Virus record (IMG/VR): IMGVR_UViG_2740892211_000015
Coordinates: 1-4,106 of that record
Length of the DNA: 4,106 bases
Reading direction: 5' to 3' (one strand)
Source of the DNA: a virus
Lineage: Duplodnaviria; Heunggongvirae; Uroviricota; Caudoviricetes
This document shows positions 2,740 to 3,585 of the stretch, in pieces (within the stretch, counting starts at the first letter, position 1; every line of letters begins with the position of its first letter). Position numbers and translations under genes: made by a program. The notes below the pieces were generated by a model, which worked only from the letters and a program-made list of their open reading frames with translations, was not told where the DNA came from and ran no database searches.

Positions 2740-2989
2740 TGTTTTGTTATGAAGGTGTTACTGGTAACGTTAAGGTAATTTAACAAAGAGTCAGTTCCGG
2801 ACTTTATAGTGTGCTCAGTTCATGGCCAAAAACGATTTCTGTGATAAATATTTTGAATATTATTTACAGGTAAATGGAGTGGGGCACATGGATAGAAATA
2901 TTACAATAGAGAATGAAGTATATGCCCGTATTGTATGGGCAGAGAAGGCAAAAACACGGTAATTCCGTGTGTTGCCATGATACCTGATT

Positions 2990-3200
2990 GGCAGAATAGT
3001 TGTTTGGTTTTGAGTATATAGTCAGCGTTTTTTGTTCAGTAATTGCTCCCTCAAAAAATAATAAAATAAGGTGATTATTTTTGTTTATTATTTAGTTTTT
3101 TTTGTGTGTTGTTTTATTGTTTTTGCGTGGCTTGTTTTTTATTGTTATTTCATTAAGGGAAGGTAAATTCAGGATGGCAGTCTGTAGATAATCGGAGGTC
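2990..3200 (+). promoter_or_regulatory. AT/T-rich, probably intrinsically curved region upstream of the PerC-like gene; putative moron promoter and possible nucleoid-protein (H-NS-type) binding region
   Basis: Runs of T5-T8 and AT-rich sequence, in strong compositional contrast to the flanking lysis genes. Ends at a GGAGG Shine-Dalgarno (3194-3198) for the ORF at 3205. No confident -35/-10 pair could be fixed by eye. Confidence 0.4.
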
Positions 3201-3204
3201 ACTT

Positions 3205-3519
3205 ATGCTACATGATCACGTGGCAGAATGTCTGGAGAAAAAAGGACTGTACCGGAGAGCAGCTGAACGATGGGCAAAAGTGATGGTACAGCTAAGTGAT
3301 GACCAGAAAAGAAAAGTGGCGGCACAGAAACGAGCAGAGTGTTTGCGTAAGGCGCGCCGGACTCCGGTTTCACCGGTGAACCTGACCGAAATAAAACAAG
3401 CGGTCAACAGACTACATTCTGAGTTGGGAATGGGATTTGAAGAGCGGCGGGTATTCCGACGATATAAAGGGACAGGAGAACAGAATACGTCCGGAAACGC
3501 GCGGTCAAAAAAATGCTAA
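3205..3519 (+). CDS. PerC/Pch-family-like small transcriptional activator (104 aa), moron gene
   Basis: Strong Shine-Dalgarno GGAGG 6 nt before ATG 3205. N-terminal LEKKGLYRRAAERW motif resembles the conserved core of PerC-family regulators as I recall it. Basic C-terminus. Own upstream AT-rich region and downstream terminator. Confidence 0.5.
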   Translation: MLHDHVAECLEKKGLYRRAAERWAKVMVQLSDDQKRKVAAQKRAECLRKARRTPVSPVNLTEIKQAVNRLHSELGMGFEERRVFRRYKGTGEQNTSGNARSKKC

Positions 3520-3555
3520 AAAATATCTGAGAGAGTTATTGCCTGTTACCATAAG

Positions 3556-3585
3556 AAAAAGCGACTTTAGTGGTCGCTTTTTGTG
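3556..3585. terminator. Bidirectional rho-independent terminator shared by the convergent PerC-like (+) and YnfO-like (-) genes
   Basis: Stem AGCGAC (3560-3565) pairs with GTCGCT (3573-3578), 7-nt loop, flanked by A5 (3556-3560) and T5 (3578-3582). Confidence 0.7.

Follow-up and report, generated by a model that had tools for sequence, protein, structure and literature searches.

A pchA-type PerC-family regulator gene in the bor slot of a lambda-like prophage

In EHEC, lambdoid prophages exert control over the LEE pathogenicity island through Pch proteins. Pch and the PerC protein of EPEC both activate LEE1 (PMC4764244), and the same report describes the dependence of LEE on PerC in EPEC as conditional. 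PchA, PchB, and PchC are all ler activators, each raising expression of a ler::lacZ fusion in K-12 at least 4-fold, and PchD and PchE have hardly any effect on ler (PMC5931665). Activation of LEE1 by Pch occurs only under silencing by H-NS/StpA (with Hha/YdgT); in vivo, Pch reduces the occupancy of LEE1 by H-NS, in a reconstituted complex it keeps H-NS out, and its own binding is unaffected by H-NS (PMC4764244). Deletions of pch lower LEE expression (PMC6265319, PMC4764244). The pchA gene is itself controlled by several inputs. Lrp/butyrate and LrhA act at the pchA promoter region (PMC7279287, PMC4456613), with LrhA regulating pchA and pchB differently (PMC4456613), and the gene is additionally under sigma-S and NtrC control (PMC10714755). 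In a non-lysogen, a butyrate sensor driven by a fragment termed "native PpchA" works (PMC7279287). At the level of translation, two reports describe pchA as blocked by an anti-SD (anti-Shine-Dalgarno) segment in its coding sequence until the small RNA DicF binds there (PMC7769764, PMC7873438).

The window, by which we mean the whole 4106-base stretch of DNA analyzed here, is the late-region end of a lambda-like prophage. From left to right it contains the 3' end of a SASA-family esterase/DUF6645 gene (to 637), a P21-type holin gene (788-1003), a DUF1327/YdfR gene (1008-1352), a lysozyme gene (1403-1936), a 37-aa ORF (2157-2270), and the plus-strand Rz spanin gene (2272-2739; PF03245, E=8.4e-49) with Rz1 embedded in it (2492-2677; PF06085, E=1.7e-21), the Rz/Rz1 pair also matching phrog_13/phrog_3198. 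Rz is the left neighbor of the pch unit, and the right neighbor is a convergent, minus-strand ORF of 74 aa (3601-3825) belonging to the DUF3950/YlcI-YnfO family (PF13132, E=1.3e-17; NF041551). Further right lies the 12-nt cosN cohesive end GGGCGGCGACCT (4033-4044, plus strand), which is identical to bases 1-12 of lambda. The initial annotation had placed the regulator gene between the spanins and cos; Rz/Rz1 on the left and cosN on the right agree with this placement, but the DUF3950 ORF also lies between pch and cos. Homology to lambda picks up again at about 3667-3678, so that about 0.93 kb of non-lambda DNA spans the interval from the Rz stop at 2739 to this point, and positions 3678-4077 are 88% identical to the right-end/left-end (cos) junction of circularized lambda. 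The first 53 codons of the DUF3950 ORF fall within the lambda-homologous DNA, where the lambda counterpart is an unannotated minus-strand ORF (48109-48303) with 88.7% identity over 53 aa. The best match to the full 4106-bp window in complete genomes reached no more than 97.0% identity, so that the window combines known parts into a new mosaic. This prophage mosaic differs from the studied ones, and the pch unit itself is 100% identical to several.

The ORF at 3205-3519 (plus strand) encodes a 104-aa PerC-family regulator of the pchA type within the group 1 Pch proteins (PF06069; WP_001303878.1). The description of its product as a basic protein with a PerC-like motif was accurate, as the protein has a pI of 10.3 with 25 lysine and arginine against 12 aspartate and glutamate residues, and the motif LEKKGLYRRAAERW occupies residues 10-23. 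When the protein was compared with the PerC profile PF06069, as had been suggested, a score of 149.3 bits was obtained against a cut-off of 22.6 bits (E=3.8e-44), with residues 1-89 aligned to profile positions 1-89 of 90. The earlier reading of a PerC/Pch-like regulator turned out to be too modest, since the protein is, residue for residue, the PchA protein of prophage Sp4 in E. coli O157:H7 Sakai (ECs_1091, NP_309118.1; 100% identity). PchB is identical to the window protein at 103 of 104 positions, the difference being V6L. The identity to PchA and the single difference from PchB fit the published variation among the pchA, pchB, and pchC coding sequences, which differ only at nt 16, 172, and 183 (PMC5931665). 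The window protein is named "PerC family transcriptional regulator" in RefSeq and "PchABC family" in UniRef. A protein identical to it has been characterized since 2004.

Within the protein, residues A7, L10, E11, G14, Y16, R17, R18, A19, A20, R22, and W23 were invariant in two family alignments, and A7, L10, E11, R17, R18, A19, W23, and C46 were at least 90% conserved among 150 PerC-family representatives. A single-sequence AlphaFold2 model contained four helices at low confidence (pLDDT 51) and was too poor for a fold search. A PDB sequence search with the protein gave no match even at E<=10, and PADLOC returned no matches for the pch protein and the small ORFs.

Proteins of the PerC family differ in function: ler is hardly affected by PchD and PchE (PMC5931665), a PerC-like protein from a phage-inducible chromosomal island (PICI) represses LEE1 (PMC11773190), and sub-threshold matches to the ANR model are widespread among PerC-family proteins. 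The gene could be viewed as a paralogue of another role, comparable to PchD/PchE, YfdN of K-12, or the PICI PerC-like protein, that either does not activate LEE1 or represses in the manner of an ANR. Its product, however, matches PchA at every residue, PchA has been shown experimentally to activate ler, and its ANR score of 13.6 bits lies under the 32-bit cut-off. Judged by sequence, complete identity to PchA effectively refutes the paralogue explanation, to which we assign a negligible probability. For the same protein, the proposed connection to ler and the LEE, which had been raised as a possibility, is already published (PMC4764244, PMC5931665). We are nearly certain that the element is a pchA-type member of the group 1 pch genes (pchA/B/C) that LEE-positive E. 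coli carry, a moron that ends the late operon of a lambda-like prophage; such pchA-type genes are already known and are common.

The assignment as a moron is carried by the position, composition, and boundaries of the unit. In lambda, the slot directly after Rz is occupied first by bor and then by two other ORFs, and the correspondence to bor claimed for the regulator gene holds in that the pch unit fills the place where bor directly follows Rz. In the Stx-type relative PPyecE_EH1910, a phage without pch, an unrelated hypothetical gene is found in the same slot. The moron reading advanced at the outset agrees with all of this: the bor slot is filled, the unit is absent from lambda and from the pch-less relative, it ends in its own terminator, and its composition is distinct. 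The holin, lysozyme, and Rz genes have a GC content of 0.54-0.55, whereas the flanks of the pch unit are at 0.32-0.35. An AT/T-rich island had been described at about 2990-3200, and it is present, with a GC content of 0.295 and an AT skew of -0.35 at 3001-3200; the low-GC zone is, however, broader than claimed. GC content is 0.318 across 2963-3204, falling to 0.237 with 54% T across 3030-3160, and it is 0.35 at 2740-2962 and 0.35-0.39 at 3520-4032. The pch ORF, at 0.49, is a GC-richer island within this AT-rich tail.

The left boundary proposed at 2740 was supported by co-occurrence. The left arm of the unit (2740-2962, plus strand, GC 0.35), searched as the 226-bp segment 2740-2965, was found at 1,875 places, all of them in the 673 genomes that have the pch unit, and nowhere without pch, so that the left arm always accompanies the gene. 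The possibility that 2740-2962 is phage backbone outside the unit was rejected on account of these zero occurrences apart from pch, and the arm was taken as part of the unit because it is absent wherever pch is absent. It contains a plus-strand ORF of 46 aa (2822-2962; phrog_2157) that was missed in the initial annotation. This ORF is unlikely to be a real gene, as no Shine-Dalgarno sequence precedes its ATG at 2822 and it carries no RefSeq annotation; three of the four substitutions among its copies are non-synonymous, in what is a tiny sample. It is probably not protein-coding. The 226-bp arm may be a functional part of the unit, such as a long leader or a regulator-binding region.

A small hairpin (ACACGG-AATTA-CCGTGT) was detected by the terminator scan at the right end of the left arm (2954-2970). 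Its T-run lies only on the minus strand, which rules it out as a plus-strand terminator. The same hairpin forms the left edge of a segment that is divergent in strain A25, the sole clearly divergent copy of the unit (91.3% identity overall). The divergence of A25 amounts to 19.8% in 2963-3204 and 6% in the ORF, against 0-4% in the flanks, with 2700-2962 and 3520-3700 nearly identical to the window. This concentration in 2963-3204 and the ORF marks promoter/leader and ORF as the segment that was exchanged or has evolved separately. A scan of the whole window against Rfam at E<=1 gave no matches in 2740-3600, and a rimP leader match elsewhere (E=0.65) is at chance level.

The T-rich, low-GC region directly upstream of the gene (2963-3204, plus strand, GC 0.318) presumably carries the promoter, the regulator-binding sites, and the leader. 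A curved, H-NS-silenced promoter had been proposed at 2990-3204, which is plausible on general grounds but unsupported beyond its AT-richness; a GC content of 0.24 is typical of H-NS targets generally. The centers of the A/T-tracts are spaced by 21, 25, 9, 15.5, 19.5, 14, 8.5, and 15.5 bp, and no consistent helical phasing of 10-11 bp was seen for the T-tracts in these spacings. Consensus promoter scanning of the upstream region found two promoter-like sites where 4.1 were expected, which is not above chance. In the literature searched, no report of H-NS binding at pch and no pchA transcription start site were found, and the supplement of PMC7279287 does not give the sequence of PpchA.

The chance-level number of promoter-like sites is also in keeping with a different explanation, namely that pch is expressed mainly at induction as the tail of the late transcript (pR', Q antitermination), the T-rich region being a spacer or leader. 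The interval between Rz and pch contains no plus-strand terminator, the T-run of the 2954-2970 hairpin being confined to the minus strand, and the transcripts of group 1 pch genes increase together with those of other prophage genes at a late time, 12 h after SOS induction (PMC5931665). On the other hand, pchA is expressed in uninduced lysogens under regulation by Lrp/butyrate, LrhA, sigma-S, and NtrC (PMC7279287, PMC4456613, PMC10714755), the "native PpchA" fragment is functional in a non-lysogen (PMC7279287), and published work describes pchA as functional even though its lysis-pch block in Sp4 is flanked by IS629 and inverted with respect to the neighboring late genes. Expression mainly through the late transcript is unlikely in our assessment but not negligible, and it is a partial rival of an own promoter, as both routes can coexist. 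Along with an own promoter in the AT-rich region, which we favor, late-operon read-through probably adds to pch expression, since without a plus-strand terminator between Rz and pch the late transcript should also raise expression at induction.

The terminator attributed to the gene is present as an 11-bp hairpin with a U-run at 3556-3582, beginning 37 nt past the pch stop codon. It was identified by direct folding as AAAAAGCGACU-UUAGU-GGUCGCUUUUU, with an A5 run preceding the stem and a U5 run following it. The hairpin folds on both strands, so that it looks like a bidirectional intrinsic terminator serving pch on the plus strand and the DUF3950 gene on the minus strand, and it is invariant in the divergent A25 copy. 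The consensus terminator scan missed it, apparently because the stem takes in the T-run.

Translation of pch is preceded by the strong Shine-Dalgarno sequence that had been noted, GGAGG at 3194-3198 (plus strand), 6 nt before the ATG at 3205, and pairing in the mRNA is predicted to occlude this element. G3194 and G3195 were paired with P>0.85 in each of the three transcript frames that were folded. The minimum free energy fold offers a candidate anti-SD within the coding sequence at codons 30-34 (3293-3304, plus strand), which would pair with the SD/AUG segment 3194-3205, and this pairing had P of about 0.58 in two of the three frames; 3362-3368 and 3228-3235 were alternative predicted partners, the latter favored in one frame. 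A k-mer complement search using the K-12 dicF sequence from NC_000913 as query identified ACCAGAAA at 3302-3309 (plus strand), a perfect complement of DicF nt 1-8. This complement and the candidate anti-SD overlap at the 3' end of the latter, and an 8-mer match alone is weak evidence. In duplexfold comparisons of DicF with the mRNA, long looped duplexes barely beat shuffles (11/300). The predicted occlusion of the SD is consistent with the published anti-SD model (PMC7769764, which cites Melson and Kendall 2019), and the anti-SD and DicF pairing coordinates given here are predictions.

To place the unit among E. coli genomes, the 861-bp segment 2740-3600 was located at 1,883 places in 673 of 5,426 complete genomes (about 12%), the median being three in each genome; the best copy reached at least 99% identity in 657 records. 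Sakai has three places for the unit, as expected for pchA, pchB, and pchC. Serotypes O157, O145, O26, O111, O103, and O121 are among the carriers listed, and these serotypes are typically LEE-positive. In an assembly collection, the pch protein was entered in 15,398 index blocks. The unit was essentially absent from a set of 50,697 phage records that included hundreds of Stx phages, with only two matches; both are short and unannotated and are listed as phage ECO95 1-6-1, whose host is O157:H7 ATCC 43895. Ten further loci always showed the order holin-lysozyme-Rz/Rz1-pch-DUF3950-terminase, with a terminase of either the Nu1/GpA type or the Terminase_2/TerL type and a unit at least 98.8% identical. 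In the window, Sp4, Sp11, and these ten loci, pch is directly downstream of Rz/Rz1, and the unit is nearly unchanged across the differing prophage backgrounds. Some plasmids carry it as an IS-flanked fragment.

Many pch-bearing prophages are defective and IS-ridden, which would suit an inert remnant in a decaying prophage, with an intact ORF that has lost expression or selection. This explanation is countered by conservation of the ORF, SD, upstream region, and terminator at 98.8% or more over prophage backgrounds and IS-flanked plasmid fragments, by the retention of several copies per genome, and by the reduced LEE expression of published deletions (PMC6265319, PMC4764244). We consider it very improbable that the gene is an inert remnant.

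As a separate observation, the window protein matched the NCBIfam ANR model NF033650 at E=0.046, with residues 7-47 aligned to profile positions 9-49 of 54. At 13.6 bits against a cut-off of 32 bits, it is not a member of the ANR family. Weak ANR matches were nevertheless recurrent: they were seen for all four PerC-family proteins aligned first (best E 2.6e-4), and an exhaustive profile search recovered 273 PerC-family representatives at E<=0.001, of which the top 150 all match PF06069; the ANR model is additionally matched at E<=0.01 by 110 of these 150 and at E<=1e-6 by eight. A homologous-protein search with the window protein returned 22 close relatives, none named as ANR. ANR proteins such as Aar and Rnr, of about 60-70 aa, are virulence repressors acting by protein-protein interaction with AraC-type activators and H-NS (PMC10148876), whereas Pch is reported to bind DNA and activate (PMC4764244). 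ANR and Pch proteins alike are small and helical, occur in enteric pathogens, and modulate virulence genes under H-NS control. PerC is not mentioned in the ANR literature examined, and a 2025 paper reports in passing ANR matches for the LEE1-repressing PerC-like protein of a PICI (PMC11773190). At the sequence level, the PerC/ANR overlap is real and has been lightly noted in print.

Pch/PerC may share homology with the ANR anti-activators Aar and Rnr in its N-terminal half, at about residues 1-55. If so, anti-silencing of LEE1 could need direct contact between Pch and H-NS (or between Pch and Ler) beyond competition for DNA, and a single superfamily would have PerC activators at one functional pole and ANR repressors at the other. 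N-terminal Pch/ANR homology with anti-silencing by direct contact and, separately, a functional left arm at 2740-2965 are speculative proposals, and we regard them as doubtful.

Taken together with the published work, the locus suggests the following course of regulation. In the lysogen, pch would be expressed from its own AT-rich upstream region, at an inferred promoter position, in response to Lrp/butyrate, LrhA, sigma-S, and NtrC. Translation would be gated by pairing of the strong SD with an anti-SD inside the coding sequence, and DicF would open this pairing under low oxygen, the exact sites of both interactions being predicted. The bidirectional hairpin would terminate the transcript. 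The 104-aa basic protein would then bind the LEE1 (ler) promoter region and lower its H-NS/StpA occupancy, as published for the identical protein, and derepressed ler would, via Ler, turn on the entire type III secretion island together with many effector genes outside the LEE. The family, identity, anatomy, position, copy number, and conservation of the gene come from the present analysis, and its target and mechanism from the literature. In the source genome, of which 4.1 kb was analyzed, this role would depend on the presence of a LEE island. Recognizing pch in the raw window was a correct and useful annotation but brings no new biology; what remains of value is the PerC/ANR relationship and the unmapped promoter/leader within the conserved 465 bp upstream.

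The closest described counterpart of the locus is pchA of Sakai Sp4. The 861-bp unit there is 99.65% identical to that of the window (858/861), the order Rz, left arm, T-rich region, pch, and hairpin is the same, and DNA identity is 99.1% over 1392-3682; upstream of 1392 the window mosaic differs from Sp4, being only 90-95% identical. The IS629 element that accompanies the inverted lysis-pch block of Sp4 has severed it from the DUF3950 ORF and cos, whereas the window retains the lambda-like order intact to cos. PchB (ECs_2182, Sp11) and PchC (ECs_2737) of Sakai resemble the window's PchA in length and in the position of their genes after Rz. The pchB locus of Sp11 is 94.5% identical over 2305-4078 and has an antirepressor gene between R and Rz.

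More distant is the EPEC-type PerC encoded by perABC/bfpTVW on EAF-type IncF plasmids, which is 48% identical to the window protein. The motif LE(K/E)KG(L/F)YRRAA(E/D)RW is common to both, in consensus form LExxGxYRRAAxRW. PerC is an 89-aa protein without the basic C-terminal tail of the 104-aa Pch, and its gene is the plasmid-borne third gene of an AraC-type operon, whereas pch in the window is a prophage moron. Finally, lambda bor, a gene expressed in the lysogen to the advantage of the host and not of the phage, shares with the pch unit the slot right after Rz, but it runs on the opposite strand, and its product is an outer-membrane lipoprotein unrelated in sequence to Pch. Unlike lambdoid morons of the bor/lom type, pch encodes a regulator that acts in trans on another mobile element, the LEE.

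The window is a new mosaic built from known modules. Over its entire length (1-4106), no match above 97.0% was found among complete E. coli genomes. The segment carrying the pch unit (2740-3600) was 100% identical to several complete E. coli genomes, and the holin/DUF1327 part (794-1043) was only approximately 90 to 91% identical to the Sakai pchA prophage.

The pch unit includes an AT-rich left arm of 226 bp (2740-2965), which was located at 1875 places in exactly the set of genomes that carry pch and never apart from pch among the complete E. coli genomes. No RefSeq annotation covers this arm. 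It contains a 46-aa ORF assigned to phrog_2157 (2822-2962) that lacks a Shine-Dalgarno (SD) sequence and in which three of the four substitutions seen were non-synonymous. A hairpin at the end of the arm (2954-2970) is terminator-like for the minus strand only. The left arm could serve as an extended leader sequence, bind a regulator, or stop antisense transcripts.

The sole clearly divergent copy of the unit, from E. coli A25, a strain obtained from a monkey (locus L007, 4001-4864), was compared with window 2740-3600. The T-rich upstream region diverged by 19.8% and the pch ORF by 6%, with eight amino acid changes, whereas almost no differences occurred in the left arm, at the terminator, or in the flanks. 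Confinement of the differences to the upstream region and the ORF suggests that the promoter-plus-gene core of pch recombined or evolved separately.

Among approximately 50,700 sequenced phage genomes, hundreds of which belong to Stx phages, the pch unit was absent from all but two short records; these lack annotation and name the phage as ECO95 1-6-1 and the host as O157:H7 ATCC 43895. A fragment spanning Rz1 and pch is also present on IncF plasmids, flanked by IS3, IS30, and IS66 elements, and NleH was listed together with PerC under the match in two of the plasmid matches.

Extensive sequence overlap links the PerC (PF06069) family to the AraC negative regulator (ANR; NF033650) family, an overlap scarcely noted in the papers examined and corresponding in the window to 3205-3369, or residues 1 to 55 of the protein (alignment A3). 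Among the top 150 PerC-profile hits, the ANR model was also matched by 110 at E ≤ 0.01 and by eight at E ≤ 1e-6; the PerC-family protein of the window scored only 13.6 bits against this model.

The SD region (3194-3205), whose SD the note calls strong, is predicted to pair with 3293-3304, corresponding to codons 30 to 34 of the pch coding sequence itself, and this predicted partner is overlapped by an 8-nt complement of the 5′ end of the sRNA DicF (3302-3309). Both predicted sites fit the published DicF/anti-SD control of pchA.

In two relatives, phage PPyecE_EH1910 and Sakai prophage Sp11, the R-Rz slot harbors an antirepressor gene, and the R-Rz interval (1937-2270) is therefore a second variable slot within the lysis cassette. 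In the window, it instead holds a strong terminator-like hairpin of 15 pairs followed by a T-run (2026-2058) and a 37-aa hydrophobic ORF, phrog_4493 (2157-2270), stopping 1 nt upstream of the Rz start codon. The DUF3950/YlcI-YnfO ORF adjoining cos (3601-3825, minus strand) has an 88.7% identical homolog in lambda (NC_001416, 48109-48303, minus strand), unannotated in that reference record. The C-terminal 21 residues of the ORF in the window are different and are encoded by non-lambda DNA adjoining the pch terminator.
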